DNA from: Eubacteriales bacterium | GTDB taxonomy: Bacteria > Bacillota > Clostridia > Oscillospirales > CAG-272 | Reading direction: 5' to 3' | Assembly (NCBI GenBank): GCA_045542275.1 | Contig: JAZQKP010000016.1 | Span: 5,576 to 69,575, forward strand | DNA length: 64,000 bases | Shown: positions 2,144 through 58,393 of the stretch, piece by piece | How the letters are laid out: each line of letters begins with the position of its first letter | Numbering within the stretch: position 1 is the stretch's first letter | Notes under the pieces: generated by a model | The model's database searches: none | What the model saw: only the letters and a program-made list of their open reading frames with translations | What the model was told of the DNA's origin: nothing | Position numbers and translations under genes: made by a program

Positions 2144-2548
2144 TTATGCTGATGTTATACGTTTTGCAAGCTTTGGCAGTATTTCACGCACCTTGGCACG
2201 TACCCATTCATCTGAGTAACCAAGCTGCTCCCCTACCTGCCAATAGGTTTTGTCTCCGTTGACAAAGCATTCAAGCATGATGATTTGCTCACTTGGTGTA
2301 AGAGTGGATATTATACCAAGATATTTCTTCTCAAGCCTGTTTGCTTTTCTTATGTATTCGTTGATTTTCAGTGATTTGAGTATATCCTCAATCTCGGAAA
2401 TTTCCTCTGTAATCTCGGGAGATTGCTCCATGGACCTTAGCCTTTCAAGTCTTCTTGTTCTTATGTCTCTTATGGTTTCCCGTACCTTTATACATTTTTC
2501 AAGATGCTTAAGCTCTTTTAGCTCCGCCTTAATCTGTTCAATCCTCAT
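2144..2548 (-). CDS. Sigma-70 region-4-like HTH protein resembling phage late-gene activators (RinA/ArpU-like size and architecture)
   Basis: 135 aa starting at MRIEQIKAELK. The ATG at 2548 is preceded by AAGGAGG. N-terminal coiled-coil; C-terminal LTPSEQIIMLECF...YWQVGEQLGYSDEWVRAKVREIL resembles sigma region 4. The listed 187-aa ORF extends upstream in a frame that overlaps another small ORF. Confidence 0.55.
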   Translation of the reverse strand: MRIEQIKAELKELKHLEKCIKVRETIRDIRTRRLERLRSMEQSPEITEEISEIEDILKSLKINEYIRKANRLEKKYLGIISTLTPSEQIIMLECFVNGDKTYWQVGEQLGYSDEWVRAKVREILPKLAKRITSA

Positions 2549-2597
2549 AAAACCTCCTTGCAAAGCTTTTTGCCACACCGCAAGCAAAAAGATTTTA

Positions 2598-2765: not shown

Positions 2766-2911
2766 ATGCTCCTTTCCCGATTTTCCTTGACATTTCCTAA
2801 ATTAAGTGATATAATCTTATCATAACAGGGCTATGACCTAATTATATTCCTAATTTAGTAATATGTCAATAGCAATACTGTAACTTTTTTGAATTTGAAG
2901 GAAGGTGTCCT

Positions 2912-3562
2912 ATGAATAAGACAGTTATACTTGAAAGAATAGGTACTCTGTGCCGTGAGCGTGGAATTTCCATGAATACAGCCTTTTTGGAAAGTGGAGT
3001 TGGTAAGAATTTTAAAAGCAATATGAAGACTGCCAACCCTACTATGGGCAAGATTACAATGCTATCTATGTACTTTAATGTATCCCGTAAGTTTCTTCTG
3101 GGTGAAAGCGATAACCGTGGGGGATACATAAAGGATATTATGGATATAAACGGAGTTCACCCCGTTAAGAGAAAGAGCCTGCCCATTCTTGGCAGTATTG
3201 CCTGTGGCGCTCCTATTTTTGCTGAGGAGAATCTTGACGGATATGCGTCCTGTGACGGTGACATTAATGCCGATTTCTGTCTTTACGCCAAGGGGGACAG
3301 TATGATAGATGCGGGCATTCGTGACGGAAGCATCGTGTTTATTAAGAGTCAGCCCACCGTTGATAACGGGCAGATTGCTGTTGTTCTTATTGATGATGAG
3401 GCTACCCTTAAGCGTGTGTACTTTGATAAGGATAACAAGCGAATGATTTTAAACCCAGCCAACCCTGCCTATGCGCCTATAATTGTGGATAGCACACAGA
3501 TTGAATGCGGAAATGTACGTATTCTCGGCAAGGCAGTTATGTGTCAGTTCAAGGTGGTGTGA
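2912..3562 (+). CDS. XRE-type HTH / S24 peptidase repressor (phage CI-like, LexA-like autocleaving)
   Basis: 216 aa. The N-terminus is an HTH (LCRERGISMNTAFLESGVGKNF). The C-terminus has the S24 catalytic pattern (GDSM serine, LKRV lysine) and a cleavage-loop-like CGAPIFA segment. Confidence 0.85.
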   Translation: MNKTVILERIGTLCRERGISMNTAFLESGVGKNFKSNMKTANPTMGKITMLSMYFNVSRKFLLGESDNRGGYIKDIMDINGVHPVKRKSLPILGSIACGAPIFAEENLDGYASCDGDINADFCLYAKGDSMIDAGIRDGSIVFIKSQPTVDNGQIAVVLIDDEATLKRVYFDKDNKRMILNPANPAYAPIIVDSTQIECGNVRILGKAVMCQFKVV

Positions 3563-17196: not shown

Positions 17197-17214
17197 TTAA
17201 GGATAGGAGTACAA

Positions 17215-19399: not shown

Positions 19400-19424
19400 C
19401 GAAATGACCTCCTTATATATGATT

Positions 19425-21233: not shown

Positions 21234-21269
21234 TGTTATCCTCCTTTTAATCATCTTTTCAGACACCTA

Positions 21270-27412: not shown

Positions 27413-27580
27413 GCGATGTTCCATCGCAATGAATTGCCAAAGGCATGAATTGGCTTAAGCCATGAATTGCTACACATGAATTGCACTGCAGTGCATAAGG
27501 AAAAAGCAATTCAATTCATGGAGCGAAGCGAGAATTCATGATGCATAGCATCAATTCACGATGTGGACACATCAATTCAT
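27413..27580 (+). repeat. ATGAATTG/CAATTCAT composite structured repeat, family 1, copy 1
   Basis: Four ATGAATTG units are separated by short GC mini-hairpins (GCC-AAA-GGC, GGC-TTAA-GCC, GCAC-TGCA-GTGC). Units in the opposite orientation follow (CAATTCAATTCATG, GAATTCATG, CAATTCACG, CAATTCAT). Collinear with 53914-54086 and with the reverse complement of 46611-46837. Confidence 0.8.
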
Positions 27581-27588
27581 AACTAATA

Positions 27589-27625
27589 GAAAAAACGGAC
27601 ACCCACGTGTCCGTTTTTTATTTTG
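27589..27625. terminator. Bidirectional rho-independent terminator
   Basis: Stem ACGGACAC / GTGTCCGT with loop CCAC. A-run upstream, T-run downstream. Lies between convergent genes. Confidence 0.8.
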
Positions 27626-27629
27626 TTTA

Positions 27630-29114: not shown

Positions 29115-29305
29115 ATTTTTCTCCTTAAATACATTACTGAAATTATAATATCATTTTTTTATTCTTTTGGCAATAGGAAATCTGTCCTATTGCTGTTTTT
29201 ATTTTAAATTTTTTGTATGTACGTTTACATACATACGTGCGTGTGCGTAGGTGAACGCAGGGTGATTTTGTATGATTTTTTGAGAAAAAATGCACTTTTT
29301 TAAAA

Positions 29306-29334
29306 TTACTTAATTTATATAATAAATTAAGTAA
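29306..29334. promoter_or_regulatory. 29-bp palindrome (13-bp perfect arms) containing TATAAT; candidate operator/promoter of the phage-like cluster
   Basis: In TTACTTAATTTATATAATAAATTAAGTAA, all 13 arm positions pair around a 3-nt centre. TATAAT sits at 29318-29323. I saw no good -35 hexamer at 17-nt spacing. It lies 83 nt upstream of the first cluster gene. Confidence 0.5.
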
Positions 29335-29416
29335 AAGTCTAACGTTTTCTAACGCTTTGGTTATGCAATAATAAGGTTGCGGGGGACAACCGACACAAAG
29401 GGAAAGGAGATGCACA

Positions 29417-29782
29417 ATGAAAAAGGTAAAAGCGATTAAGGTAACAAAGAGGAGCGCCGAAAAATGTAAGGAGCGTTTCGCCCTGCAATCTATGGAGATT
29501 GTAGGCTTGGCTCAGGCGATTATAAAGCGAAGATTAGAACGGGCTCTCTTTTGTGAGGAGGAGCTTGATTGCCTTATGCAGACGCTTCTCCATCATGCCG
29601 AGGTGTGCGAGGATAAGGGAAAAAGCAAGACTATAATATCAAAATTTGATTCCCTCCGAATTGAAGATATTACAAAGCTTGTCTCCCTTATAAAGAGTAT
29701 GGGCGACAGGGAGCCGACAGGTAGGACGGAAATCAAGGAGGGTGAGCAGGTAAAAATAAAGTTTGAGGATTTATATGGATAA
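29417..29782 (+). CDS. Hypothetical protein in the small-terminase position
   Basis: 121 aa, basic N-terminus. Immediately precedes the large terminase and overlaps it by 8 nt. Assigned by position only. Confidence 0.35.
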   Translation: MKKVKAIKVTKRSAEKCKERFALQSMEIVGLAQAIIKRRLERALFCEEELDCLMQTLLHHAEVCEDKGKSKTIISKFDSLRIEDITKLVSLIKSMGDREPTGRTEIKEGEQVKIKFEDLYG

Positions 29783-31544
29783 TGCAAGAGAGCTTATTTC
29801 CTCCCTTGTAAAAAGGCGAAGAGAGGCTTGGGAGACTAAGGGCAGCATCTCTCTGGATAAAAGAATATGTAGGGAAAATGCCGACATAATTCTTGACACA
29901 CCACATCTGAGAGATGAAGTAATAAAATCACCCTATCTGCTTATTGAGCCCTGCTTCTCTCTTGTAAGCAAGGAAAAAAGGGACTGCCCCTTTTTCCTTA
30001 ACACCGTGCAAAGAGATTTTATTTTCCGTCTCGAAAAGCACGGAACCAAAAGGCCCTACTTTATCTTAAAGGGGCGGCAGCAGGGCTTTACAACCCTTAT
30101 TACAGCTATTCAGCTTTCCTTTGCCATAGTAAGAAGAAATTTCAGCGGCTTCACCGTAGCAGACAGGGACGATAATGTTAAATCGATTTTCCTTGACAAG
30201 GCTAAGCTTATGTACTCCCGTCTGCCCTCACGGCTTAAGCCTACTGAACGCTTTAATTCCTCAAATGAGCTTTATTTTGATAAGCTTAACAGCTCCTGGA
30301 GAGTAAGCTGCGCCACGGAAAATCTTGGAAGAAGCCGTACTCTTTCCTTTATCCACTATTCCGAGGCGTCATTCTTTAAATGCTCTCTTGCCTCTCTGCA
30401 GCGCTCCCTACAGGAGTGTCTTATTCCCGATGCCCTTTGCATCTACGAAACTACGGCAAACGGCTACGGAGAATCAAAGGAGCTGTGGGATAGCGAAGCC
30501 TGTGTAAACCTCTTTTATGAGTGGTGGCTGAGTGATGAGTACGAAAGGGACACAATGCCCGAAATAAAAATGGATTCCTTTATTAAAAAAAGAATAGAGC
30601 TTCTTCGTTCCCTTGGCTTAAGGGAAGAAAAAATCAACTGGTACGTGTGGAAATACAGCACCTACATAGACAAAAGCGCAATCAAGCAGGAATATCCCTG
30701 CACAAGTGAGGAGGCTTTTATTTCCACAGCAGAATCCATTTTTGACAGAGACAGCATTTCTCAGCATATGGCACAGGGTCTGCCTGAGTATTCTCTTGGC
30801 TACTTTATCTATGATAAGGAGAATGTGCCTATCTATTCGGAGGACGGCAGAGTTATCCACTACCACAAGCGTATAACTAACATAAGGTTTAAAAAAAGCG
30901 ATAACGGGTATATAAAAATCGTGGAGCTGCCTTACCGACGAGAGTACTCCGACAAAATCGAGGAAAGACCTTACGTAATCGGCGCTGATACCTCAGGCAC
31001 AGGCAGTGACTACTTTGCTGCCAAGGTTATTGACAACACAAACGGAAAATGCGTGGCTTCTCTCCACAAGCAGAAAATTGATGAGGACTTGTTTTCCGAG
31101 CAGCTATACTGTCTTGGTATGTACTACAATGAGGCGCTTTTGGGTGTGGAAACAAACTATTCCCGTCACCCTGTGCGTGTTTTACGTTCTCTCGGCTATG
31201 TAAATCTCTATTCCGCCAACACCGAGGAATACTGTGGCTTTCTTACCACCTCCGTAACCCGTCCTATTATCATAGCCAACCTTGTCAGCGTAATGCGTGA
31301 CTGTATAAGCCTTGAAACCGACAGGGATACCTTACTTGAAATGCTTGATTTCGCTAAAAGTCCGTCAGGCAAGGCACAGGCTGTAAGCGGTAAGCACGAT
31401 GACCTTGTTATATCCTCTGCAATTGCAAGGTACATAGGCCTTGGCTACGATTGTCAGCTAAGGGTGAAAAAGCAGATTTACGACACTCTCCCCCGTAATT
31501 TCACCCTTGAGCCAAAAGAAAATAACAGTTATATGGAGTGGTAA
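29775..31544 (+). CDS. Phage terminase large subunit
   Basis: Walker A-like ILKGRQQGFTTL, Walker B-like LSFIHYSE, coupling-like ETTANG. C-terminal RNase H-like nuclease motifs VIGADTSGTGSDYFAAKV and GKHDDLVISSAIA. Confidence 0.8.
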   Translation: MDNARELISSLVKRRREAWETKGSISLDKRICRENADIILDTPHLRDEVIKSPYLLIEPCFSLVSKEKRDCPFFLNTVQRDFIFRLEKHGTKRPYFILKGRQQGFTTLITAIQLSFAIVRRNFSGFTVADRDDNVKSIFLDKAKLMYSRLPSRLKPTERFNSSNELYFDKLNSSWRVSCATENLGRSRTLSFIHYSEASFFKCSLASLQRSLQECLIPDALCIYETTANGYGESKELWDSEACVNLFYEWWLSDEYERDTMPEIKMDSFIKKRIELLRSLGLREEKINWYVWKYSTYIDKSAIKQEYPCTSEEAFISTAESIFDRDSISQHMAQGLPEYSLGYFIYDKENVPIYSEDGRVIHYHKRITNIRFKKSDNGYIKIVELPYRREYSDKIEERPYVIGADTSGTGSDYFAAKVIDNTNGKCVASLHKQKIDEDLFSEQLYCLGMYYNEALLGVETNYSRHPVRVLRSLGYVNLYSANTEEYCGFLTTSVTRPIIIANLVSVMRDCISLETDRDTLLEMLDFAKSPSGKAQAVSGKHDDLVISSAIARYIGLGYDCQLRVKKQIYDTLPRNFTLEPKENNSYMEW

Positions 31545-31546
31545 AA

Positions 31547-31726
31547 ATGTTTAAAGGAACTATTAAGGCTCGGCTTAAAAGAGCCGAGGAGGAGATTTCA
31601 CGCCTTAAAGATGAAAACAAAAGAATTATTGACGCACTTGAGCGAGGAGACGGAAATAACAGCATTACCTGCGCCCGTCTTATTGACGAGTGGGTAAACG
31701 GAAGGGAGGGAGAAAATGAACGATAA
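31547..31726 (+). CDS. Small coiled-coil hypothetical protein
   Basis: 59 aa from the ATG at 31547, after a GGAG RBS. KARLKRAEEEISRLKDENKRI. Confidence 0.4.
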   Translation: MFKGTIKARLKRAEEEISRLKDENKRIIDALERGDGNNSITCARLIDEWVNGREGENER

Positions 31727-33419
31727 GGATTTTGCAGCTCTTATCTATGAACGGTACGAAAGCGGAATTGAGTATCAGAACAGCCTTGGGCTTCGCCGTC
31801 TTATCCCCGAATATGTGCGCTTTTATGAGGGAAAGCAATGGCCTGAGCCAACAAGGAATACAAGAAATCTTCCCCGTCCCGTTATCAACATTGTAAAAAT
31901 GATTTGCAGAAACAAAAAGAGTGCGATTTTATCCACTCCCGTAAGGATTTTATATAAATCCAAGGATAAGCGTGTGGATACAGACCCTCTTAACGCCTTT
32001 TCCGACACTGTCCTTAAGGACCTTGACCAGGACGCACTTGATAAGAATGCTATTGACGATGCAACCAAAAAGGGCTCTTACTTTTATCATTATTACTGGG
32101 ATAGCGAGGGAGAAAGTGCCTATGGGCTTAAGGACGGTGCTCTTCGCTGTGAGCTTATTGACCCACTTAACATCTTTTTTGAAAATCCCTGTCAGCTTGA
32201 TGAGCAAAAGCAGGGCTGGATTATTATTTCAACAAGGGATAAGGTGGAAAATGTAATTAAAAATGCCGAGGAGGGTGTGGATAAAACCCAGATTTTGCCC
32301 GATGAGGAGCTTGGAGCTTCTAACCCGTCCAAGGAAATGTGCACCGTTCTTACAATGTACTATAAAAAGGAAAATCAGGTTTTCTGTGTCCGTTCCGTAA
32401 AGAACACGGTAATTAAGAGGGAATTTCCTATTTCCCCTAACAAAAATCTTGCCTATGAGGCGCTTGGTGTAGAGAAAAACAGCAAACGTACCGAAAATTT
32501 TGCAACGCTTTACCCTATTGTGTGCGGCTACTATGAAAAAAGGGACAGATGTATATATGGACTTAGCGAGGTAGAGGGGCTTATCCCTAATCAGAAGGCT
32601 ATTAACTTCAATATCGCCATGTCCCTTTTAAACGCACAGGAGGTGGCGTGGGGCAAGTATATCGCTTTGCCCGGAGCCCTTAAGGGTCAGACTATTACAA
32701 ATGCCCCGGGGCAGATTCTTGTTGACTATACAGGCACAGGCAACGGCATTAAAAAGATGCAGGAAAGCTATATGCAGTCCTACCCTGTTGAGCTGGTAAA
32801 GACTATTACCGACCTTACACGAAGCGTAACGGGAACATCTGAGTTTATGACAGGCGAGGTAGAGGGCGCAGGAATGTCGGGCACGGCAATTGCAAGGCTT
32901 CAGTCTCAGGCGCTTCTTCCCATTGAGGATTTACGTGCTACCTTTATGGCAGTCAAGAGAAAGCAAGGCAGAGTTCTTGCTCAGTTCTATAAGCTCTACT
33001 TCCCAAAATGTACCTTTGAGTATTCCTCTGAGGAAAAAGGGAGCATTATCGCCCACTTTGATCCCGATGATTACGACGGCAAGGACCTTGAAATCATTGT
33101 AGAAACCGTCCTTGGCGCAAACGCATCTGTGGCAGGAGATATTACAATGCTTGACAACCTTTTAAAGAGTGGCAAGATTTCTCTTGAGGCGTACATCGGC
33201 GCTTACCCCGACAGCGCCCTTACAGACAAGAAAAAGCTTCTTGCACGTATTAAGGAATCAAAGGAAGCTGAGGCGATTTCCTATAAGGAGGAGATTAAAC
33301 GTCTTGAAGCTCAGCTTAAGGAAAACGAAAGCACTGTCAGCCGTGTATCAGCTATAATCAGCGAAAATAAATCTCTTAAGGAGATTATAGCAAAGGAGTA
33401 TTCAAATGGACGAAAATAA
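31716..33419 (+). CDS. Phage portal protein (by position, size and N-terminal pattern)
   Basis: 567 aa, directly after the terminase. The N-terminus YVRFYEGKQWPEP is reminiscent of portal families. Acidic coiled-coil C-terminus. Confidence 0.6.
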   Translation: MNDKDFAALIYERYESGIEYQNSLGLRRLIPEYVRFYEGKQWPEPTRNTRNLPRPVINIVKMICRNKKSAILSTPVRILYKSKDKRVDTDPLNAFSDTVLKDLDQDALDKNAIDDATKKGSYFYHYYWDSEGESAYGLKDGALRCELIDPLNIFFENPCQLDEQKQGWIIISTRDKVENVIKNAEEGVDKTQILPDEELGASNPSKEMCTVLTMYYKKENQVFCVRSVKNTVIKREFPISPNKNLAYEALGVEKNSKRTENFATLYPIVCGYYEKRDRCIYGLSEVEGLIPNQKAINFNIAMSLLNAQEVAWGKYIALPGALKGQTITNAPGQILVDYTGTGNGIKKMQESYMQSYPVELVKTITDLTRSVTGTSEFMTGEVEGAGMSGTAIARLQSQALLPIEDLRATFMAVKRKQGRVLAQFYKLYFPKCTFEYSSEEKGSIIAHFDPDDYDGKDLEIIVETVLGANASVAGDITMLDNLLKSGKISLEAYIGAYPDSALTDKKKLLARIKESKEAEAISYKEEIKRLEAQLKENESTVSRVSAIISENKSLKEIIAKEYSNGRK

Positions 33420-33759
33420 TATTCACGATAGCGACTTTGCACTTCTCTATCCCGACGTAAACAAGGAGGAGCTTCTTGCAAATGAGGAATTCAATCTCTT
33501 TGCAGGCAGCCGTCTTTCAGCCGAGGAGCTGTCGGAGGTGTACCGTGGCTATCTTGACTTAACGGAAAGAATAAGAAAGCGTGAAATGGAAAAGGCTGCA
33601 GATATTCTTGCAAAAAAGCTTTCCTCCGTTGGCGCACTTAACAACTCAAACCCTCCCGAAAATACATATTTCACAAGGGAGCAGGTAAAGGGCATGAGCC
33701 GTGCCGAGATTAAGGCTAACTATGAAAAAATAAGAAAAAGCCAGGAAAAATGGCAGTAA
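33406..33759 (+). CDS. Scaffolding-like protein
   Basis: 117 aa, acidic, helical/coiled. Lies between the portal and capsid genes. Confidence 0.4.
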   Translation: MDENNIHDSDFALLYPDVNKEELLANEEFNLFAGSRLSAEELSEVYRGYLDLTERIRKREMEKAADILAKKLSSVGALNNSNPPENTYFTREQVKGMSRAEIKANYEKIRKSQEKWQ

Positions 33760-33780
33760 AAATGAAAAGGAGAATTTATT

Positions 33781-34611
33781 ATGGCATATGAAAATTTTAT
33801 TCCCTCTGTGTGGTCAGAGGCTATTAACAGAGGTCTTGAAAGAGAATGCGTTTTCGTTCAGGACTGTAACAGACAGTACGAGGGCGATGTATCCAAGATG
33901 GGCGACTCCGTCCATATCCTTGGCGTAGGTAAGCCCACTATCAAGACTCTTGAAAGAGCTAACGCAAGCGGTGAAATCGACGCTGCCGAGGAGGTATCAG
34001 ACAGCTCCGTTATTCTTAACATCAACCAGATTCGCTACTTCAACTACAAGGTTGGCGATATTGATAAGGCTCAGGCAATTGGCGGCCTTATGGATGCGCT
34101 CTCCGAGGAGACAGCAGAGGGCATTTCCAATGAAATGGATAAGTTTGTTGCTAATATGGCAACAGAGGCAACAAAGCTTTATACCGAGGATAAGGTGGTA
34201 ACAAAGGATAATGTCCTTGATATTCTTGATGATGCTATCGAGGCGCTTCAGGATAAGGATGTAAACATTTCCTCCGGTGTAAGCATTACTATCTCGCCTA
34301 AGTTCTATAAGCTCTTTAAGAGAGCCTACATTGAAAAGGATACGGACAACAGCGAGTTCCTTAAAAACGGTGTGGTAGCAAGATATGGCGCAGTTACTAT
34401 CCGTATGTCAAAGAATGTTGCAAGGACAGGCGACACCGATAATATGATGATCAGAACCAAGCGTGCCATCGCCTTTGTAAACCCTCTTACACATACAGAG
34501 GCATACCGTCCCGAAAAATCCTTTGCAGACGCAGTTAAGGGCTTTGTCCTCTTTGACGGCAAAATAGTTCGTCCTGACGAAATCATTAACGTAAACGTAA
34601 AGTACGCGTAA
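33781..34611 (+). CDS. Major capsid protein (P22-coat/HK97-fold-like N-terminal signature)
   Basis: 276 aa. The N-terminus MAYENFIPSVWSEAINRGLERECVFVQDCNRQYEGDVSKMGDSVHI matches the recurrent NFIPxxWS...V....V.R.YEG......GD.V.I pattern of this coat-protein family. Lies in the capsid position. Confidence 0.7.
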   Translation: MAYENFIPSVWSEAINRGLERECVFVQDCNRQYEGDVSKMGDSVHILGVGKPTIKTLERANASGEIDAAEEVSDSSVILNINQIRYFNYKVGDIDKAQAIGGLMDALSEETAEGISNEMDKFVANMATEATKLYTEDKVVTKDNVLDILDDAIEALQDKDVNISSGVSITISPKFYKLFKRAYIEKDTDNSEFLKNGVVARYGAVTIRMSKNVARTGDTDNMMIRTKRAIAFVNPLTHTEAYRPEKSFADAVKGFVLFDGKIVRPDEIINVNVKYA

Positions 34612-34622
34612 TTTAATTTTGG

Positions 34623-34644
34623 GGGCAGCAAGCAATTGTTGCCC
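34623..34644 (+). promoter_or_regulatory. Stem-loop with GCAA (GNRA) tetraloop directly after the capsid gene
   Basis: GGGCAGCAA-GCAA-TTGTTGCCC forms a 9-bp stem including one G-U pair. No strong U-tract follows. It could be an attenuating terminator or an mRNA stabiliser. Confidence 0.4.
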
Positions 34645-34673
34645 TTAAATTTAAAATACAGAAAGGAGAAAAA

Positions 34674-35324
34674 ATGAAGCTAGGCAATATAAAACTTGAA
34701 GCATTGTATCTCTGCTTCCCAAGCCCGCAGCTTTACGTCGACACCGACGATGACACCCTGCTTACAGAAGCACTTTCAAGCCTTAAGGACGACCCTAACT
34801 ATTCCGACTACCTAAATGCCACAGTTGGCGCAATCAACAGATGCATTTCACTTTTTGAGCTTAAGGGTATGCTCCCCTTAAAAAGCGTGACCGTGCTCTT
34901 TTCCAAGGACAGAGTAAGCAACGGCAGCTTTATTATAGATATGTCTTCCCTTGCAAATGATTTTTATAAGGCTGACAGAGTTATTACCTATCCCTACGGC
35001 GATTTACCTCACAAATGGGAGTTTGCTGATTTGGGCAACGGAAAAATTCAGGTTGCGCCCATTAACGTAGGGGAAAGCTACACGGTTTTCTATCACTCCG
35101 AGGGAGAAAGAATAAGTCAGGCAACGCCCGAAACCTATGAGCTTAAGCTGCCACGCAGGCTTTGTGAGATTATGCCCTATTATATCAAAAGCGATATTTT
35201 AAGGGTTGATGACCCTACGGAGGCTGAGACCGCAAGAAAAATCTTTAATGAGCTTTGCAGCGATATTGAGGATGGGGAAAGGCTATATTCCTCAATGGTG
35301 CGCTCAATCTATAAAATGGGGTGA
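34674..35324 (+). CDS. Hypothetical structural protein (adaptor/head-tail connector position)
   Basis: 216 aa. Follows the capsid gene. Its stop overlaps the next GTG start (GTGA). Confidence 0.35.
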   Translation: MKLGNIKLEALYLCFPSPQLYVDTDDDTLLTEALSSLKDDPNYSDYLNATVGAINRCISLFELKGMLPLKSVTVLFSKDRVSNGSFIIDMSSLANDFYKADRVITYPYGDLPHKWEFADLGNGKIQVAPINVGESYTVFYHSEGERISQATPETYELKLPRRLCEIMPYYIKSDILRVDDPTEAETARKIFNELCSDIEDGERLYSSMVRSIYKMG

Positions 35325-37834
35325 TAAAAATAAAAAGCACAAGACACAATTTTAAAATTGAAAGCTTACGTGGTGTGGATTTGACCTCTCACCCTGCAAA
35401 TGTACAGAAAAATCGCGCTACGTATATGAAAAATATGGTTAATTACGGTGGAATTAATCATAAGCGCAAGGGCTTTCATCAGATATATGAGCTTCTTTCT
35501 ATAAATGATACGCCCTTAAAAATAAACGGGCTTCATATTTGCACTCTTAACGGTAAGGAGGAGCTTATTATCCATGCAGGCACAGACTTTTATAAGGAAA
35601 ACGGAGATAAAATCCCGAAAGACGTGTCTGTTTCCGATACAAAAAGCCAAGCCTTTTGCACAGATAAGGAGATGATTATTGTAGGCTGCGGTGGAATTTA
35701 TACCTTTAACGGAGAAAAAATCTCATCTATCACTCCCTACGTGCCTACAATACGTAAAAGCTATGACTGTCGCTATGACAAGGGACAGTATATGGAAAGC
35801 CCCAACTACCTTACACCCAAGCGAAAAGAGCTTTTTTGCGGTAAGCTTTTTGAAAACGAAAGAAATACATATCTTAAGCTTGATACAAACGCAGATTACA
35901 CCAAGGGAATTACAATTACCGTATCCCTTTCCCCTATTCATAACGAGCTTCGTATTTGTGAGGGAGAAAGCCCAAATCCAGACACAGACTCCCTTGTTTC
36001 CAACGATGTGACTGTGATTTTCCACATTACAGAGGAAAAGCTTGATTTGAATTTACCCATAGATGCAGAGCCTGTAATATCAAATGGAAAAAGAGTTTAT
36101 TTCCTTGATAGCACCACATCATCTGACACTGTGGTCTATCCGACTGTCTCCACTCTCTTTGCAGGAAGTGGCTTTACCTTTAATTTTAATGCTACCCCCT
36201 CAACAGAGGACGAATACAATATTCTCATTGAATATTCGACTACGGAAGATAAAGGCAGAACGGTGCAGGACTGTATTATGGGGGCATTATCACAGGATAA
36301 CAGAGGAAGCACACGTCTTGTCCTCTCCGGTAACGGTCAATTTCCGAATTTCTGTTGCTTCTCCGACGGACTTAACAATAACGGTATTAACTATTTTCCC
36401 GAAGCCTGTGGATTTTACGTAGGAGACGGCTCACCTGTTACATCACTTTACAACCTTAGTAACACCTACGTGGGTGTTTTTAAGAAAAACAGCTTTTTCA
36501 GATACGCAATTTATCATTATCCCAAGGCGAGCGCCCTTGATGAGCAGATCTATATAAACGGCTACGAAAGTCAGGATAATCAGGGGTGTATCTCCCCTTT
36601 CGTGTGCGCCACATCAAACGGAGACTACCTTGTTTTTGACGGCGACGGAGTGTTTGGCATTACAGATGTCAGCTCCTCAAGTGACAGATCATACCTTGCA
36701 AAGCGAAGCATCAATATAGAAGGTGGGCTCAAAACACACTCCTACGAGGATATTTTAAATGCAGTAGGCTGTGAGCTTGACGGCAGATACTACCTGTTTA
36801 TAGGAAACAGAGCTTACGTGGCAGATACAAGATACACCTTTCGTGAGGGTGGAGCCCTTGGCTCTCACTATCAGTATGAGTGGTGGGTGTGGACCTGTCC
36901 CAAGGTAAGATGCGCTGTCAAGTATAAGGATAAGCTTTATATGGGCACTGAGGACGGCAGAATTTATACACAGGGTGAGGATTTTCGTGATATTAAGATA
37001 GTTAAAAGCGCCAAGGACGGCGACTATGTCTATAAGGACGGTGGCTTTTATATTAATGAAAGCATTCCCCTTACGGCCTCAACTAAATTAATGCTTAAGG
37101 GCGTTCGCTCATTTCTCAAAAATGGCGAATTTACAGCATCATACGAGAACGGAATACTTAAGATTATGACCGATAATCCCTACTCTCAGGCAAGGGAGCT
37201 TGACAATGTGGTAATTAAGCTATCTGACGGCGATGAATTTACCGCTGCATTAGTTACAATTCCTCAGTATGATGAGCTTGGAGCCTTAACTCTTTTACCC
37301 AATAAGGATATAAGCGATATTAATCCCGATAGCATCCTCGAAATCTGTCTTTTGGAAACCCACAACAGAGAGTATACTCTTAAAAAAGAGGGGGACGTGT
37401 ACGTAACCTACTATAAGGATAAGGCTGTACACTGGCATGAATGCTATGACCTGTTTTTTATAGAGTGCCATACTGTTGAGGCTGAATTTTACACCCCGAT
37501 GCTTAATTTTGATGAGCCAATGCGTACAAAAACCCTTATACGTATAGGGGTTTCTTCAGCAAATGAGGATTCGGGCAGCGTTAATTTCGGTTGGGATACA
37601 AGAAAAAGCACCTTGTCAAGAATTGACGGCATTGACGGTCTTGATTTTGCAAGCTTTGACTTTGATAAGCTTTCTTTTGAGTTTCCCTTTGCAAAGGTCT
37701 ATGAAAGACGGGTATTTGAGAGGAATTTCAATTATATTATGTTTAAATTCTCATCAAAGGAAAACAAGGACTGCGCCATAAATGAAATTTACGGTCTTTA
37801 CACAGTAAACAACTATATACAGGGGGTTAGATAA
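35321..37834 (+). CDS. Large hypothetical structural protein (tail hub/nozzle-sized)
   Basis: 837 aa, no TM helices. Assigned by position and size only. Confidence 0.35.
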   Translation: MIKIKSTRHNFKIESLRGVDLTSHPANVQKNRATYMKNMVNYGGINHKRKGFHQIYELLSINDTPLKINGLHICTLNGKEELIIHAGTDFYKENGDKIPKDVSVSDTKSQAFCTDKEMIIVGCGGIYTFNGEKISSITPYVPTIRKSYDCRYDKGQYMESPNYLTPKRKELFCGKLFENERNTYLKLDTNADYTKGITITVSLSPIHNELRICEGESPNPDTDSLVSNDVTVIFHITEEKLDLNLPIDAEPVISNGKRVYFLDSTTSSDTVVYPTVSTLFAGSGFTFNFNATPSTEDEYNILIEYSTTEDKGRTVQDCIMGALSQDNRGSTRLVLSGNGQFPNFCCFSDGLNNNGINYFPEACGFYVGDGSPVTSLYNLSNTYVGVFKKNSFFRYAIYHYPKASALDEQIYINGYESQDNQGCISPFVCATSNGDYLVFDGDGVFGITDVSSSSDRSYLAKRSINIEGGLKTHSYEDILNAVGCELDGRYYLFIGNRAYVADTRYTFREGGALGSHYQYEWWVWTCPKVRCAVKYKDKLYMGTEDGRIYTQGEDFRDIKIVKSAKDGDYVYKDGGFYINESIPLTASTKLMLKGVRSFLKNGEFTASYENGILKIMTDNPYSQARELDNVVIKLSDGDEFTAALVTIPQYDELGALTLLPNKDISDINPDSILEICLLETHNREYTLKKEGDVYVTYYKDKAVHWHECYDLFFIECHTVEAEFYTPMLNFDEPMRTKTLIRIGVSSANEDSGSVNFGWDTRKSTLSRIDGIDGLDFASFDFDKLSFEFPFAKVYERRVFERNFNYIMFKFSSKENKDCAINEIYGLYTVNNYIQGVR

Positions 37835-38076
37835 TGAATGAAAAAATCTTAATTACAGACACAGAGCTTGAGAAAATTATGCTTTCCTCTGCACGTGCTC
37901 TTCCCGATAACCCAAGTGAAAGGGGCTTTCGTCCATCTCAGATAAAAAGAGCATTATCGGAGCCTGTAAGAATGCTTATTTCTCTGCTCAATAATAAATT
38001 TCAGTTTCTGTATACCGACGGTAGCATAACGGTTACGGAAATGAGCCATAGTGCCATTGATGGGCTATTTAATTAA
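37834..38076 (+). CDS. Small hypothetical protein
   Basis: 80 aa. TAATG overlap with the upstream gene. Confidence 0.4.
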   Translation: MNEKILITDTELEKIMLSSARALPDNPSERGFRPSQIKRALSEPVRMLISLLNNKFQFLYTDGSITVTEMSHSAIDGLFN

Positions 38077-38087
38077 GGGGGTGACGT

Positions 38088-40043
38088 ATGAATAATCCCA
38101 TTATAGTAACAGACAGAGCCTTAAGCTATTACGATACAAAGCTTAAGGAATATATCGGCGCAAATTACGGTGACGGTATGCTTATTGACTGGGAGCCCAT
38201 GGAGAATGGCAAAAACCCCTTCAAGCTTAAAATCGCTCTTAAAAACAGATACGGGGCTGAGCTTTTTTCAAAAATCGTAGACTTCCCTCTTGAGCAGACT
38301 ATTGTAAGCGGTGAATACAATAACGAGGATAAATCCCTTATCCTCTATTTTCAGGACGGAAGCTATACATCTGTTCCCATTGAGGACTTGATTGAGGGCC
38401 TTGCCACAAGGCTGGACCTTGAGAAAAAAGCAGACCTTGGGGAAAAATGCATTGCAAGAGGCAACGGATACACCGTAAGCGTTCCTGTAAATTCAGCACC
38501 TTATGCTCGGCTTAATAAAATCGGGGGTATGTGCTACACTAGTAGGAATTTGGTCAAGTTCCCATATTACGATTTTACAGATAACGCATTTGAGGTTAAT
38601 GGCATAAAGGGTACGGTAGACCCAAAAACTCAAATTATTCATTTGGTAGGCGTGGCAACCGCCGATGTAGATAGAAGGCTCTGTACATTAGATGTCACGG
38701 CAGGTAAATCCTACACCATCTATGCAGAGCAATCCTGGAATCAGACACGTGTAGTTCTTAGAAAAAACGGTGCAATTTACTTAAATATTGCTAAGGGTAA
38801 TGCACCCCACACCTTCACAGTAAATTCAGGCGAAACGTGGACAGTATATATCCAAGCCTTTAGTGGTATGAGCCAAAACGATACCATAAGAGTTATGGTA
38901 AACGAGGGCACGACTGCACTTCCCTTTGAGCCGTACTTTACAGGCTTGTATAGTGCAGGGGTAACCTCTGTAAGATGCACTAAGGACGGCAAGGAGCACA
39001 TCCTTGCCATTCCCAAGTATGTATTGAATATAGAGGGATACGGACAGGGCAATCCCGATAATGCCGACGAATATAACTATATTGATTTGAAAAATCAAAG
39101 ATTTATTTCCTTCGGTTATATTTCAGACGGTGTATGGATTCCCCGATATTCACAAACAGATATAGAGCTTCCGAATATTATCGGCATTGAGGGAAGTAGC
39201 ACGATTACATTTGAAAATGAGTATGGCTACGGCGTTCCCTATGAAATTGAATACACGCTTAATTCAAACGATGCTATAGGGGCTAAGGAATTTGTCGGAG
39301 ACCTTAAGGGTACAGCCGAAATGGCTAAGTATTATGATGATAACGGTAAGATTTCAAATCGCACCATTGGAGAAATACTGACTCAGCTGTTAAACGCAGG
39401 CAATCCCATTAAGGTCACTGTGGAATCAATCGGCACTCTTGCCAACGCAGACGGACAAAAAGAAATTCGAGGAGCAGGAATTATAGCAAATCCTCCCGTT
39501 TATGCAGAGGATATTGTTATTGATACCTATCTTGACTCATCAAACGGTAACGCAGCATATCTTTGCTTCTGGAAGGTGGAAAGCGTGGATACAGCTAATG
39601 TTACATTAACACCCCTTTCAAGCATATATGTCGGAGGTGGCTCTGCATCTGTTGCCAATCAGGCAATAGCCGACGGTGAGGGAAGAAATATAGCTAATAC
39701 CTATGAAACAAAAAGCAACGCGCTTTACACCCACAGCGCCCTCCGGTCAGATGTAGACAGCGCATCAGCCATTGCCAATAATGCCTTGAATATGGCAGCC
39801 AGCACTGAAGCTGTTGCAAATGATGCAAAAGAGCTTGCACAGACGGCTAACAATAATGCAGACAGCGCAAGAGCAAGAGCCGACAGAGGTGTACAAAGCA
39901 TTTCTGCCACCTATAATTCAAGCTACAACGGTCAAGGTACATTTAAGCTTAACGTAACGCTTGTAGGTGGTACAACAGAAAGCTTTGATATTACAGATGA
40001 GCTGTCCGGATTTATTATGGACGTGTTCAGTCACAATCAGTAA
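38088..40043 (+). CDS. Tail-fibre/receptor-binding-like protein
   Basis: 651 aa. The C-terminal Ala/Asn-rich heptad-like segment (SASAIANNALNMAASTEAVANDAKELAQTANNNADSARARAD) is typical of trimeric fibre shafts. GGGGGTGA RBS. Confidence 0.45.
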   Translation: MNNPIIVTDRALSYYDTKLKEYIGANYGDGMLIDWEPMENGKNPFKLKIALKNRYGAELFSKIVDFPLEQTIVSGEYNNEDKSLILYFQDGSYTSVPIEDLIEGLATRLDLEKKADLGEKCIARGNGYTVSVPVNSAPYARLNKIGGMCYTSRNLVKFPYYDFTDNAFEVNGIKGTVDPKTQIIHLVGVATADVDRRLCTLDVTAGKSYTIYAEQSWNQTRVVLRKNGAIYLNIAKGNAPHTFTVNSGETWTVYIQAFSGMSQNDTIRVMVNEGTTALPFEPYFTGLYSAGVTSVRCTKDGKEHILAIPKYVLNIEGYGQGNPDNADEYNYIDLKNQRFISFGYISDGVWIPRYSQTDIELPNIIGIEGSSTITFENEYGYGVPYEIEYTLNSNDAIGAKEFVGDLKGTAEMAKYYDDNGKISNRTIGEILTQLLNAGNPIKVTVESIGTLANADGQKEIRGAGIIANPPVYAEDIVIDTYLDSSNGNAAYLCFWKVESVDTANVTLTPLSSIYVGGGSASVANQAIADGEGRNIANTYETKSNALYTHSALRSDVDSASAIANNALNMAASTEAVANDAKELAQTANNNADSARARADRGVQSISATYNSSYNGQGTFKLNVTLVGGTTESFDITDELSGFIMDVFSHNQ

Positions 40044-40053
40044 AGGAGATAAA

Positions 40054-40635
40054 ATGAAAAGAATTATAATTTTTATGCTTGCCCTTTTCCTTATGCTTAC
40101 AGTAGTAAGCTATGCAGATGAGGGCGAGATTTCAGAAACAACAATCGCAGACAAAAAGCAAGATGTGTCTATTGACGTAACAGACGGTGAGACTGTCACA
40201 CTCAATGCCGAGGAGTCTTTTGAGGACTTTGATATTCAGTCTTATCTTACAGAAAAAATTCTTCCCGTTGTGGCAGGCGTTGCAACATCTATTGTGGCTC
40301 TTGGTGGCACAATTTATAAAATCAAGTCCTCTCTTTCCTCTCTTAACAGCTCGAACGAGAGCCTTAAGGAGATAAAAAATACGGTGTCGGGCACACTTGA
40401 CAATGTAAAGACAGAGCTTGCAAAGGGTCTTTGCGAGGTACAGACCAAGGTTAAGGAAATTCCTGAGCTTAAGGAAAGCTACTCTGAGCTTAAAAATAAC
40501 TACAGCGAGCTTTTAAAGCAGAACAAGGAGCTTATGGACGCCCTAAAGCTTGGCTTTGAAGTTTTGCCCGAGGCTGTAAAAAGTGGCAACGCCAGAAAAA
40601 TTGCTATTATTGCTGAGGGGGTTGCAGATGAATAA
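40054..40635 (+). CDS. Signal-peptide/TM protein with a coiled-coil C-terminus
   Basis: ATG at 40054 follows AAAGGAG. N-terminal signal-like helix MKRIIIFMLALFLMLTVVSYA, an internal TM helix (ILPVVAGVATSIVALGGTIY), then coiled-coil. Confidence 0.5.
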   Translation: MKRIIIFMLALFLMLTVVSYADEGEISETTIADKKQDVSIDVTDGETVTLNAEESFEDFDIQSYLTEKILPVVAGVATSIVALGGTIYKIKSSLSSLNSSNESLKEIKNTVSGTLDNVKTELAKGLCEVQTKVKEIPELKESYSELKNNYSELLKQNKELMDALKLGFEVLPEAVKSGNARKIAIIAEGVADE

Positions 40636-41063
40636 TGAAGAAAAGAGTATTAATATTATTTCTGTACATATGTTCATTTGTATGTAGTGTAGCGCCTATT
40701 GTCGTATATTTTGCCATTAATTCGGAAAAATACATCAAGTCCTATGAGGACACCTTTAAGCTTTGCTTCGGTGGGCTTATATGCTTAGTGCTTCTTGCCC
40801 TTAAGGTTATAGGCAAGCTTAAGCTCCCCTCATCAACTGTTACCTTTGGTATTGTTTTTCTTCTTGCATACCTTTTAAAGAGCATTACGGACGACCTTCT
40901 TGTTTTCTCATTCCTTGCTCTTATAGGCGATATCGCAGATAAGGTATTCTTTATGATTCCCATTTCAAAAATGAAGAAAAATATTGAAAACGAAAAGCTT
41001 TCCACCCTTACAGCCGACAAGGTTAGCGAGGCTATGGAAAGATACTTCCGAGGTGGAGTATGA
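40635..41063 (+). CDS. Small polytopic membrane protein (holin-like by position and size)
   Basis: 142 aa with about 4 hydrophobic helices. TAATG overlap upstream and ATGA overlap downstream. Confidence 0.45.
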   Translation: MKKRVLILFLYICSFVCSVAPIVVYFAINSEKYIKSYEDTFKLCFGGLICLVLLALKVIGKLKLPSSTVTFGIVFLLAYLLKSITDDLLVFSFLALIGDIADKVFFMIPISKMKKNIENEKLSTLTADKVSEAMERYFRGGV

Positions 41064-41917
41064 GATACGACTTAAGAAAATTTATGTTTAAAAACATAGG
41101 CTTTTTCTTAGTGGCGCTGGTGTCGGCCCTTTACATTGTTAAGGGGCTTTACACCCTTGGGGAAAGCGGAAAAACCGTTGCCCAGATTATAGGTGACGGT
41201 GCGCTTTCCGCCGCTGTGGGGTTTATCATAGGCCACCTTTTAAGGCAGACGGGGCTTAACTACGGCAACGATGATATTGAGGTTGTAAAAACCAAAAGCT
41301 TTCACTTAAAGCTTCTTGATGAGGCTGCCCCGAATATAGATAAGCTGGAGGGCTTTTGCGCTGAGGAAAACAGATGCGCCCTTGAGGGCATTCGCACAAG
41401 AATCCTTTCAGCCGGTGGGCTTACTTATGATGAGTGCTTCGCCTCTGACGGCACGGTAAAAATCTTTCATATTCCTATACCAAAGGGTATTCCCAAGGAG
41501 GAGAGAAAAAAGCTTAAAAGGAAAAGAAAGGCGCTTAAAAAAGCGCTGAGAGTCAGCATCACGCCCTTAACTCCCGAAGCTCTTTCCGTGGACGGGAGCA
41601 AGTACCTTGACCCCTACGATTTTGGCAAAACCCAAAGCCAGTATCTCAGGGCGAAAAGCGGTAGCGATTTGACAAGCAAGATTTTGTTTGGCTTGCTTTT
41701 CGGCTACTACGCAATTTATCTAACAGAAAACGCAGGGCTTGATGCTGTGGTATGGGCATCGCTACAGATTGCCATTTATCTTATCTTCGGCGCTACACAA
41801 ATGATGCAAGCATATATGTTTGTAAAAAACGAATGTACCGCCCGTATAACACGAAAAATTGACGCATTACAGAAGTTTTTACGGAAAAACGGTACAAAAA
41901 ACACGGATACGTATTAA
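41060..41917 (+). CDS. Membrane protein with a basic cytoplasmic loop
   Basis: 285 aa. Two N-terminal and two C-terminal hydrophobic helices flank a soluble region containing the Lys/Arg-rich EERKKLKRKRKALKKAL. Confidence 0.45.
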   Translation: MRYDLRKFMFKNIGFFLVALVSALYIVKGLYTLGESGKTVAQIIGDGALSAAVGFIIGHLLRQTGLNYGNDDIEVVKTKSFHLKLLDEAAPNIDKLEGFCAEENRCALEGIRTRILSAGGLTYDECFASDGTVKIFHIPIPKGIPKEERKKLKRKRKALKKALRVSITPLTPEALSVDGSKYLDPYDFGKTQSQYLRAKSGSDLTSKILFGLLFGYYAIYLTENAGLDAVVWASLQIAIYLIFGATQMMQAYMFVKNECTARITRKIDALQKFLRKNGTKNTDTY

Positions 41918-41943
41918 AAAATTTAACACAAAGGAGAAAAATT

Positions 41944-42201
41944 ATGAACAAAGTAATTGATATGTTCTGGAACGGAGAAAACGGATTCCACAGTAAAATC
42001 AAGGAGGATTTGTCAGAAAAAGAGGGTATTATAGATACAAAAAAGCGTGAGCTTGCCATGTATGTTAGCGACGAGCTTGGTGATGTAGTACTCGCAGAAT
42101 TGACAGAAGACCTTGATTGCTATACTGAGGACTTTGCAAAAATGGCGTTTTATGCCGGAGTTGCCATAGGCAAAAGGATAACAAAATTCGCATTAGAATA
42201 A
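41944..42201 (+). CDS. Small acidic hypothetical protein
   Basis: 85 aa. AAAGGAGAAAAA RBS. Last gene before the terminator. Confidence 0.4.
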   Translation: MNKVIDMFWNGENGFHSKIKEDLSEKEGIIDTKKRELAMYVSDELGDVVLAELTEDLDCYTEDFAKMAFYAGVAIGKRITKFALE

Positions 42202-42246
42202 AAAAGAGCTGCTACACCGAAGTGTAGCAGCTTTACTTTTTCTTTT
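42202..42246. terminator. Bidirectional rho-independent terminator at the right end of the phage-like cluster
   Basis: Stem GCTGCTACAC / GTGTAGCAGC with loop CGAA. A-run upstream and T-rich tract downstream. Confidence 0.75.
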
Positions 42247-57795: not shown

Positions 57796-57889
57796 AGTGC
57801 AGCGTCCCACTACGCAGCGATATAAATCTCTTTCGAAATTTGCGATATAACTTCGATAAGATATGCCCTGTGTGGCACAGGAGGGTTTT

Positions 57890-58381: not shown

Positions 58382-58393
58382 AAGGGGTCCCCT

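Follow-up and report, generated by a model that had tools for sequence, protein, structure and literature searches.

Positions 29417-42201 of the 64-kb stretch of clostridial DNA analysed here (hereafter the window) hold 14-15 tightly coupled genes on the plus strand, as given by the open reading frame (ORF) list, which encode phage-like packaging, head and short-tail proteins. Judging from its sequence and from those of its relatives, this cluster is probably a domesticated, podovirus-derived particle system of an uncultured gut Clostridia lineage and resembles a gene transfer agent (GTA). The large terminase (TerL) gene overlaps the first gene, g01, by 8 nt at its ATG (29775), and further stop/start junctions are GTGA at 35321, TAATG at 37834 and 40635 and ATGA at 41060. 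An earlier model-made reading of the same letters, the sequence-only reading, had listed these ORFs; all of its coordinates, lengths and overlaps were reproduced, and the TerL motifs (KGRQQGFTT, FIHYSE, GADTSGTGSDYF and HDDLV) and N-terminal capsid signature that it named are present in the translations. Profile searches returned no integrase, excisionase, replication or lysin family among 14 cluster proteins and no repressor, tail tube, sheath or tape measure family among the 14-15; the 64-kb window is free of tRNA genes, and the cluster borders lack att-like direct repeats. The lack of integrase, replication and lysin genes and of flanking repeats and tRNA, already stated in the sequence-only reading, therefore holds. 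Its statement that a repressor is absent is true of the cluster itself and fails for the window, which carries a CI-like repressor and a late activator at 2144-3562, 26.5 kb away. Neither the cluster proteins nor the flanks supply replication, integration or excision functions of their own, as expected of a GTA, and no integrase, att site, lysogeny module or replication module of the kind that marks an integrated prophage is contiguous with the cluster.

In the TerS position, g01 (29417..29782, 121 aa) corresponds to the C-terminal part of a phage small-terminase-like protein without its N-terminal helix-turn-helix (HTH). It aligns to residues 97-203 of a 203-aa protein of the phage contig L049 (E 2e-10; L numbers denote the loci collected for comparison) and to residues 57-160 of a 160-aa protein of L059 (E 3e-11). 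The L059 protein carries HTH_23 at residues 13-48, a weak match under the Pfam cut-off (E 2e-4), and the region bearing the phage HTH is missing from all g01 orthologues, which are 121-125 aa long. By analogy with RcGTA (Rhodobacter) and FpGTA (Faecalibacterium prausnitzii), a TerS-like protein lacking the DNA-binding domain suggests non-specific packaging. TerL, with ATPase and nuclease domains (29775..31544; phrog_2, 1e-16; phrog_24361), is under purifying selection, with a ratio of nonsynonymous to synonymous substitution rates (dN/dS) of 0.12, and is followed by a conserved ORF of 59 aa (31547..31726; 59-62 aa, depending on a start at 31538 or 31547) that has a 53-59-aa counterpart in all relatives.

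The portal (31716..33419) is of P22/SU10 type (P22_portal, 3e-11; phrog_156, 5e-33) and 47% identical to that of phage L049. Next comes a 117-aa scaffold (33406..33759), homologous to the phage L049 scaffold in its C-terminal domain only: it matches residues 158-264 of 265 (E 9e-30), and the N-terminal half is gone. For a scaffold shortened in this way, the same analogy suggests a smaller head; portal, TerL and nozzle have kept their full length. The major capsid protein (33781..34611) belongs to a small, 276-aa type with the HK97 fold (phrog_267, 2e-33; dN/dS 0.03-0.12). No NCBIfam model matches it at E<=0.01 and an exact look-up of its sequence found no record. At E<1e-40 its family comprises 2401 database clusters, of which more than 120 are 73-100% identical and many lie on 50-325-kb contigs. 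In metagenomes, capsids with 73-100% identity are very common.

Structure searches bear on the two genes after the capsid. The 216-aa protein (34674..35324) is identified by profile and Foldseek as a head-to-tail adaptor: its family profile matches PDB 9d83_B ("Head to tail adaptor Gp50", E 3e-4) by sequence alone, and with an AlphaFold2 model of pLDDT 78.5 the Foldseek top 10, and 12 of the 13 top hits, are podovirus adaptors (best E 3e-7; Shigella phage B2, KHP30, A4, N4, Pa223, crAss001 and SU10). The 837-aa protein (35321..37834) has homologues in 19 database clusters only, and their alignment was used for an AlphaFold2 model (pLDDT 86, pTM 0.80) with the fold of a T7 gp12-type tail nozzle. 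Its top 24 PDB hits in Foldseek are all podovirus nozzle or tail-hub proteins, among them those of cyanophage A4 (1e-21), T7 (gp12, 1e-18), E1004, HRP29, Kp7/Kp9, PhiM1, SU10 and P22 (gp10); its family profile found no match among PDB sequences. The adaptor and nozzle guessed from synteny and size in the sequence-only reading are thereby borne out by predicted structure. With adaptor and nozzle after the capsid and no tube, sheath or tape-measure family found, the tail is, on these models, of podovirus type (T7/P22/N4).

The remaining genes complete the tail module. A small conserved protein of 80 aa (g08, 37834..38076) adjoins the nozzle gene in relatives and phages alike. The 651-aa protein at 38088..40043, previously called fibre-like, behaves as expected of a fibre or receptor-binding protein: its N-terminal ~157 aa are conserved (60% identity to L009 over residues 1-157, after which the sequence is replaced), the middle is variable, the Ala/Asn-rich C-terminus is a predicted coiled coil with a weak Alanine_zipper match, and its dN/dS, 0.36, is the highest of the cluster. 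Hydropathy predicts membrane proteins for the next three genes: g10 (40054..40635), with a signal peptide or transmembrane (TM) segment, an acidic region, a second TM segment and a coiled coil; g11 (40635..41063, 142 aa), with about four TM segments and a basic tail; and g12 (41060..41917, 285 aa), with two N-terminal TM segments, at least one C-terminal TM segment and a basic centre. None of the three matches a functional family, g10 giving coiled-coil matches only in profile searches, and their homologues are found behind the tail genes, both in the phages and in every tail module. g10 is conserved in tail-only loci (see below); homologues of g11, a candidate holin-like or ejection/channel protein, occur in the phage contigs L014 and L049-L067 and in tail-only loci; and g12 shows 58-82% identity in orthologues with a dN/dS of 0.10 and is present in phage relatives. 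The last gene of the operon, g13 (41944..42201, 85 aa, acidic), is poorly conserved (34% identity to L005; the L009 counterpart carries DUF6809).

The cluster is embedded in host DNA. It is flanked by genes for the oxaloacetate decarboxylase (OAD) beta and alpha subunits, a beta-lactamase-family hydrolase, a GDSL hydrolase, an M20 peptidase and NAPRTase, and the rest of the window is core chromosome (AddAB, GyrB-like, DnaB, GdpP, Pth, RNase Y and YmdB). Of the two bidirectional terminators, one is at 27590-27619, past the hydrolase gene, and the other at 42205-42234, where an intrinsic terminator with a 13-bp stem and T runs on both strands closes the operon. A bidirectional terminator had been claimed for both borders: the right one stands, and the left border is instead a divergent promoter region at the 5' end of the hydrolase gene. 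In composition, said earlier to look like the flanks, the cluster is host-like by all three measures applied: GC content at third codon positions (GC3) is 0.447 against 0.439 for the host, relative synonymous codon usage (RSCU) of cluster and host correlates at r 0.954 (host-versus-host splits, 0.973 +/- 0.010), and the tetranucleotide distance falls inside the host range. The cluster is fully ameliorated to its host.

The same genes in the same order were recovered in L003, in L005-L008 and in L009 with L015-L017, at 98%, 54% and 40-43% identity to the window, respectively (nozzle identities). The OAD/beta-lactamase-family/GDSL/M20 neighbourhood houses the cluster in L003, L005-L009 and L015-L017, with no surrounding prophage, and the site is occupied in every relative recovered; JGI metagenomes queried with the beta-lactamase-family protein of the flank, in search of an empty site, yielded for the most part contigs of 1-6 kb and distant paralogues. 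Host proteins of those genomes are 77-97% identical to the window's, and the corresponding values are 83-96% for the capsid, 65-76% for TerL and 40-55% for the nozzle. The hosts are uncultured metagenome-assembled genomes (MAGs) labelled "Clostridia", "Oscillospiraceae", "Ruminococcaceae" or "Eubacteriales", from ruminant and human guts.

Compared with the close strain L003, synonymous divergence (dS) in the island is mostly 0.02-0.07 (0.17 for g12), similar to the 0.06-0.09 of host genes, and dN/dS rises from 0.05 for the capsid through 0.09 (portal), 0.12 (TerL), 0.16 (adaptor) and 0.18 (nozzle) to the 0.36 of the fibre, host genes giving 0.03-0.13. The range is thus 0.05-0.36 against L003 and, as a rougher estimate, 0.03-0.25 against L005. 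No internal stops occur in the orthologues except in g10 of L003, and the cluster is intact at the conserved host site in at least five lineages diverged to saturated dS. Syntenic orthologues, dN/dS of 0.03-0.36 and an island dS close to that of the host are what vertical inheritance and purifying selection, both characteristic of GTAs, would leave, and by these sequence comparisons the cluster is inherited vertically and under purifying selection. The sequence-only reading had proposed synteny, dN/dS and codon/k-mer checks. These returned the same locus without a prophage around it in relatives with 77-97% identical flanking proteins, low ratios with intact ORFs, and host-like usage; its reading of the genes as a domesticated particle is supported, each of its proposed computational tests having favoured domestication over a recent deletion remnant.

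A few differences among relatives were seen at the borders. In L009 the hydrolase gene and the cluster form one segment that runs the other way round relative to the OAD and GDSL/M20 genes; since BlaI/BlaR1 come after the OAD genes both there and in the window, the inversion is local, around the island. L003 and L005 have an XRE-type HTH gene (102 aa) between the OAD-alpha and hydrolase genes (L003 1-921; L005 947-2100), beside which L005 has an extra 114-aa gene. At this place the window has only 218 bp (27413-27629), with a bidirectional terminator. The ORF at 27561-27866 was considered as the relatives' XRE regulator and rejected, since it is antisense within the 3' end of the hydrolase gene, which leaves the window without that regulator. 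Two neighbours were likewise set aside as parts of the system. The beta-lactamase-family hydrolase, a lysin candidate by its phrog_382 match (1e-12), is divergent, has no signal peptide, and is not beside the cluster in L015 or at any split locus. The GDSL hydrolase was considered as a tail component by comparison with FpGTA operon II; its gene is on the opposite strand past the terminator, its conservation (84-92%) is that of host genes, and in L009 it borders the cluster at the opposite end.

Phage relatives of the cluster are identifiable and distant. The capsid of the best cultured phage is 32% identical and that of the best IMG/VR viral contig 66%, with none above 66% in IMG/VR. Relatives in IMG/VR are ~23-42-kb contigs with the whole late module in collinear order, from the TerS-like gene to g12, together with a DNA methyltransferase, a DNA-polymerase-related protein (phrog_6615, E 2e-7), a sigma-like regulator, tail fibres and a reverse transcriptase of the diversity-generating retroelement type. 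Podophages of ~40 kb such as L049 (IMGVR_UViG_3300045988_167712) share 59-66% capsid, ~50% TerL, ~48% portal, ~25% nozzle and ~47% g11 identity and the promoter architecture, and differ from the cluster in their full-length TerS with HTH, full-length scaffold and adjacent activator. By sequence, the element descends from this definable podophage lineage and has lost all but the late module. The case that the sequence-only reading had named against itself, genes found only inside complete prophages, did not materialise: complete phages are distant (capsid <=66%) and the orthologous clusters are prophage-free. In L049 the reverse transcriptase (17013-18116; phrog_1423, 7e-91) lies just after the tail protein genes; it is absent from the domesticated cluster and probably belongs to a diversity-generating retroelement acting on the receptor-binding protein. 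L014, a more distant phage-like contig, encodes PcfJ and a rolling-circle Rep. Two human faecal virome scaffolds, MT836592 and MT836833, were set aside as too distant (capsid 36%, nozzle 23-27%) to inform on packaging here.

Regulatory sequence is conserved where little else between genes is. Upstream regions of the orthologous clusters cannot be aligned save for one block, AAAGTCTAACGTTTTCTAACGCTTTGGTTATGCAATAATA in the window, whose conserved core (29339-29372, plus strand) reads as an activator-type promoter: CTAACG-N4-CTAACG, a T-rich stretch and an extended -10, TGCAATAAT. The element starts ~78 nt upstream of the g01 ATG, and its -10 ends ~45 nt before it. A position weight matrix (PWM) built from nine sites (GTNTACCGGTNNGTACCGGTTTTTTTATGCAATAAT and the CTAACG variant) was scanned over 1.44 Mb of collected loci. 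Full, head-only and tail-only loci had one site each (scores 22-39), always on the coding strand and a short way before the first gene. Related phages score lower (15-23), and their site falls between the sigma-like regulator gene, which it follows directly, and the TerS-like gene; when the 64-kb window was shuffled 20 times, maxima averaged 9.5 and peaked at 19.8. The two half-sites covary by lineage (CTAACG/CTAACG, TACCGG/TACCGG, GTATCG/GTATCG and GTATAG/GTATAG), a concerted change expected if one protein binds both repeats, which are spaced by one helical turn.

The same promoter type was also seen at L040 2208 and 3478 and at L038 2640 (two MAG contigs), before replication-type genes (a 365-aa replisome-organiser-like and a 249-aa DnaC/IstB-like protein) adjacent to tail-only modules; prophages and domestication intermediates are both conceivable here. 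Between the hydrolase gene start and the cluster promoter lies a terminator-like hairpin (29168-29195, TGGCAATAGG…CCTATTGCTG with a T run), conserved in L003 and L005 and with no same-strand gene upstream, which may be an insulator or a 5'-UTR element of the hydrolase gene.

A candidate for the protein that reads the promoter is encoded at 2144..2548 on the minus strand. A tblastn search with the phage regulator over the collected loci found phage contigs and this window locus (E 7e-18) and no other bacterial locus. The 134-aa product, of sigma-70-region-4/ArpU-like type, aligns full length with the phage late-gene regulator (BLASTP, 37%, E 5e-28), exceeds the Pfam cut-off for Sigma70_r4 (29.6 bits), matches phrog_36 (E 6e-9) and is weakly similar to ArpU TIGR01637 (19.8 bits, cut-off 43.1). 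We propose that it activates the cluster promoter. Its operon has a perfect TTGACA-17-TATAAT promoter (2841..2869, minus strand, read from sequence), with a putative repressor operator box, ACTAAATTAGGAA, in the spacer (2847-2859) and a similar box at 2794-2807. Divergent from it, on the plus strand, is the gene of a 216-aa CI-like repressor with an XRE-type HTH and a Peptidase_S24 domain (2912..3562; Pfam Peptidase_S24, 4e-26), which matches phrog_4 "transcriptional repressor" over its full length (E 2e-28) and falls under the LexA equivalog cut-off (90.8 < 110.95 bits), matching there in its C-terminal part only. The neighbours of the pair are host genes (FGGY kinase, aldo-keto reductase, AddAB). 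A frame for a zinc-ribbon-like CxxC...CxxC peptide (2594-2790, minus strand; …YRCLNCGKDFYEDEALFEHYTQFHPYLQGYADEELCEMHCPFCHSNELEQLY*) separates the activator gene from its consensus promoter. No canonical start codon is found close to where it begins, and a leader peptide, a non-canonical start or a remnant are conceivable.

Head and tail modules were also found apart. Four lineages (L045/46, L048, L079-82 and L102) have head-only loci of TerL, small ORF, portal, scaffold and capsid, located between ACT/DUF711/methionine-biosynthesis genes and parB-parA-parB with no tail genes within 10 kb; look-ups of the capsid homologues P0070 and P0127 led to further head-only loci in other assemblies. Five lineages (L012, L021, L023, L044 and L026) have tail-only loci of a small protein, adaptor, nozzle, fibres and g10-g12, located between DXS and transketolase genes; head genes are missing from the surrounding 10 kb. 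L026 differs upstream in having the OAD operon, a neighbour of the full cluster in the window, instead of DXS. The host site is a different one for each split type and conserved from lineage to lineage, and the genes are intact (L079 TerL excepted) and, where measurable, under purifying selection, with dN/dS of ~0.05 for the capsid and 0.09-0.36 for tail genes. Head and tail genes at separate chromosomal sites under one promoter type can make up no mobile unit or prophage, and such a split-locus architecture is also known from alphaproteobacterial GTAs and FpGTA.

The tail-only operons (L012 9035-9352, L021, L023, L024, L026 and L044) start with a small protein bearing …GDTQAAVFLRDTSGNKLKD…KFEDF, and the same small protein is found in the TerS position, before TerL, in the full cluster L022 (3381-3845). 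From these sequences it appears that in split genomes the TerS-position gene stays with the tail locus while TerL is in the head locus. Homology between g01 and the tail-only first proteins was not established, a C-terminal KFED[LF] being all they share (hhalign probability 17%), and a profile search of the latter against PDB sequences gave noise only.

Taken together, these genes would suffice to build a particle filled with DNA, and the following course of events can be envisaged. The CI-like HTH-S24 repressor (2912-3562) would shut the consensus promoter of the activator and be removed by SOS-type self-cleavage, after which the activator (2144-2548) would switch on the 29339-29372 promoter, as suggested by motif distribution and homology. 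Capsids would assemble on a scaffold lacking its N-terminal half, TerL and the HTH-less TerS-like protein would package DNA, and by analogy with RcGTA and FpGTA packaging would be without sequence specificity, in capsids perhaps smaller than those of the 40-kb ancestor. Adaptor, nozzle and fibre, assigned by fold, would finish a short tail, and the three membrane proteins are candidates for holin-like or ejection-channel functions in release or delivery. The most likely product would be a GTA-like particle with host DNA.

Several points weigh against this reading. The whole case is comparative, and particles, packaged DNA and transfer are deduced from genes. Family searches found no endolysin in the cluster or in the 64-kb window, and the 13-kb cluster may package itself. 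The window has a single promoter-motif site, the regulator pair was traced in near-identical short contigs only, and what ties the activator to the cluster promoter is homology and the position of the phage gene. dS is saturated for all but the closest pair, which makes the deep dN/dS values rough. In head-only L079 (233-2004; also in L080 and L082) an in-frame stop divides TerL into 443 + 83 aa; the split is seen on many independent contigs and may be a real pseudogene, i.e., packaging may have been lost in one lineage. An in-frame TAA in g10 of L003 (13432-13525) lies 41 nt past an N-run in the scaffold and may be an assembly artefact or a null allele, so that some copies may decay. Finally, a head-only and a tail-only locus were not found in one genome, either by capsid-homologue look-ups or from cluster-member names, which had no shared locus-tag prefix.

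Three other explanations were weighed. An unlikely one is that the particle is PBSX-like or otherwise transfers nothing, and is kept for killing competitors, DNA release, biofilm matrix or as a phage decoy. All evidence for domestication fits it equally, and a fast-evolving fibre (dN/dS 0.36, middle replaced in L009) is expected of any receptor-targeting device; the authors of FpGTA leave the same question open for their system (PMC12946183). On the other hand, no tailocin-type killing mechanism is known for a short non-contractile tail, and purifying selection on TerL, portal and the TerS-like protein implies that DNA packaging itself matters. That the cluster is a cryptic prophage remnant, its early region deleted and its late genes not yet decayed, is improbable. 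Structural-only remnants are common, and the split TerL of L079, the g10 stop of L003 and the lack of a lysin would suit one. Recent deletion is nevertheless hard to reconcile with 14-15 genes intact at a conserved site in at least five lineages of saturated dS with dN/dS of 0.03-0.36, near that of host genes, with ameliorated composition, with a promoter core that is invariant amid unalignable intergenic DNA, or with head-only and tail-only loci each conserved at a syntenic site of its own.

A phage satellite or helper-dependent mobile island of the capsid-forming phage-inducible chromosomal island (PICI) type, with a helper supplying replication, lysis or excision, is very improbable, even though the ~13 kb size, own terminase, portal and capsid, and ArpU-like activator recall such satellites, and even though GTA candidates and capsid-forming satellites are easily confused (10.64898/2026.07.08.737213, preprint). 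Integrase, primase/replicase, att repeat and tRNA target are lacking, the position is fixed across species, the cluster has its own adaptor, nozzle and fibre, and the regulators lie 26.5 kb away among core genes, with split loci elsewhere. A domesticated GTA-like particle system is, in our judgement, what these data favour.

Other parts of the window deserve brief mention. At 18521-21266 on the minus strand, adjoining BlaR1 (21270-23363) in the region of lowest GC of the window (0.38-0.40), two BspA-type leucine-rich-repeat surface proteins of 292 and 613 aa are encoded side by side; one of them has a Listeria-Bacteroides repeat. Three small unannotated genes lie at 57322-58861; the product of the last (58394-58861, 155 aa) gives a weak match to the SH3_5 cell-wall-binding domain (E 1e-4) and has no catalytic lysin domain, and with no promoter-motif site there is no evident link to the cluster. 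A gene between the regulator locus and addAB (5227-6210, minus strand) codes for a non-specific DNA/RNA endonuclease (Endonuclease_NS_2, 3e-22); such nucleases can affect uptake or release of extracellular DNA.

Among known systems, capsid-forming PICIs have an integrase, a replication module of their own, and capsid and packaging genes with no tail genes, whereas the window's cluster has adaptor, nozzle and fibre and neither integrase nor replication genes. PBSX of Bacillus subtilis is a defective phage-like element that is SOS-inducible via a repressor, uses a small sigma-like factor for its late genes and packages random 13-kb host DNA. The Gram-positive host and the predicted repressor control and sigma-like late-gene factor are alike; PBSX differs in its myovirus-type contractile tail, killing particle and single locus with lysis genes. 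ArpU/RinA regulation is defined by a small sigma-region-4 gene just upstream of terS and a late promoter. The region-4 domain and the position of the phage homologue agree with this, while the window's own gene is 26.5 kb of core chromosome away from the operon. The RcGTA regulators GafA/GafYZ and CtrA are unrelated to the window's, and we know of no sequence relationship between RcGTA-type GTAs and the cluster. RcGTA-type systems (Rhodobacter, Caulobacter) share with it vertical inheritance, purifying selection, host-like composition and, judging from the split loci of other lineages, perhaps distribution over several loci, and differ in having siphovirus-type long tails and Proteobacteria as hosts. 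Alphaproteobacterial GTAs have, moreover, a TerS without DNA-binding specificity, a reduced head, scattered loci and a dedicated activator (PMC12946183, PMC11150451).

Closer in kind is FpGTA of Faecalibacterium prausnitzii, whose two operons yield 40-nm particles with ~8.5-9 kb of host DNA, characterised by proteomics (PMC12946183; Nat Commun 2026, preprint 2024), with short-tail-type proteins including a nozzle and a TerS without an evident DNA-binding domain (PMC12946183). The view in the sequence-only reading that described GTAs are long-tailed and a short-tailed one would be unusual is out of date, FpGTA being podovirus-like (PMC12946183). Both systems are podovirus-like, structural-only chromosomal sets without integrase or replication genes in gut bacteria, the host of FpGTA being a member of the NCBI family Oscillospiraceae. 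The FpGTA order (TerS, TerL, portal, head-assembly protein, capsid, nozzle and an Ala-rich "TolA-like" protein) is like that of the window, and FpGTA is spread over more than one locus and near-ubiquitous in its host clade. The differences are equally specific. The FpGTA capsid (RCH50849.1) belongs to the N4-gp56 family, that of the window to the phrog_267 type with no NCBIfam match; a Prp-type protease lies between portal and capsid where the window has its 117-aa scaffold; operon II of FpGTA encodes a holin and an endolysin, none of which was found in the window's cluster; and particles, DNA and proteomics were observed for FpGTA, whereas the window family is known from genes alone. No Faecalibacterium proteins were among the homologues listed, and the window family, set apart by the FpGTA annotation, is probably a different one.

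Of the ways in which capsids mobilise DNA in the human gut, GTA-like packaging of bacterial DNA is reported to be the commonest, and it is seen mostly in Ruminococcaceae, Oscillospiraceae and Christensenellaceae (PMC12946183). Faecalibacterium is the only genus with an assigned gene cluster (PMC12946183), Coprocola has candidates (10.64898/2026.07.08.737213), and clusters for the other taxa with such packaging remain unidentified (PMC12946183; 10.64898/2026.07.08.737213). We tentatively suggest, as a possibility that we rate somewhat short of even, that the genes described here represent a second, independently domesticated podovirus-derived GTA family, occurring widely among uncultured Oscillospirales-like Clostridia in the guts of ruminants and humans, with head locus, tail locus and SOS-type switch joined into a regulon by one promoter, and that they are the missing gene set for GTA-like packaging in Oscillospiraceae and Christensenellaceae. 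If so, the promoter motif would read out the whole regulon, unknown lysis genes included, from any genome. For the other taxa the family offers a concrete candidate gene set, with a capsid family that is very large in metagenomes. The control circuit, in which a putatively self-cleaving repressor and a phage late activator detached from its operon are combined with a promoter of 34 nt marking every module, is testable, and the single-locus and split forms capture stages of domestication, the TerS HTH and the scaffold N-terminus being the trimmed parts. To FpGTA the system is related in concept, not evidently by descent.

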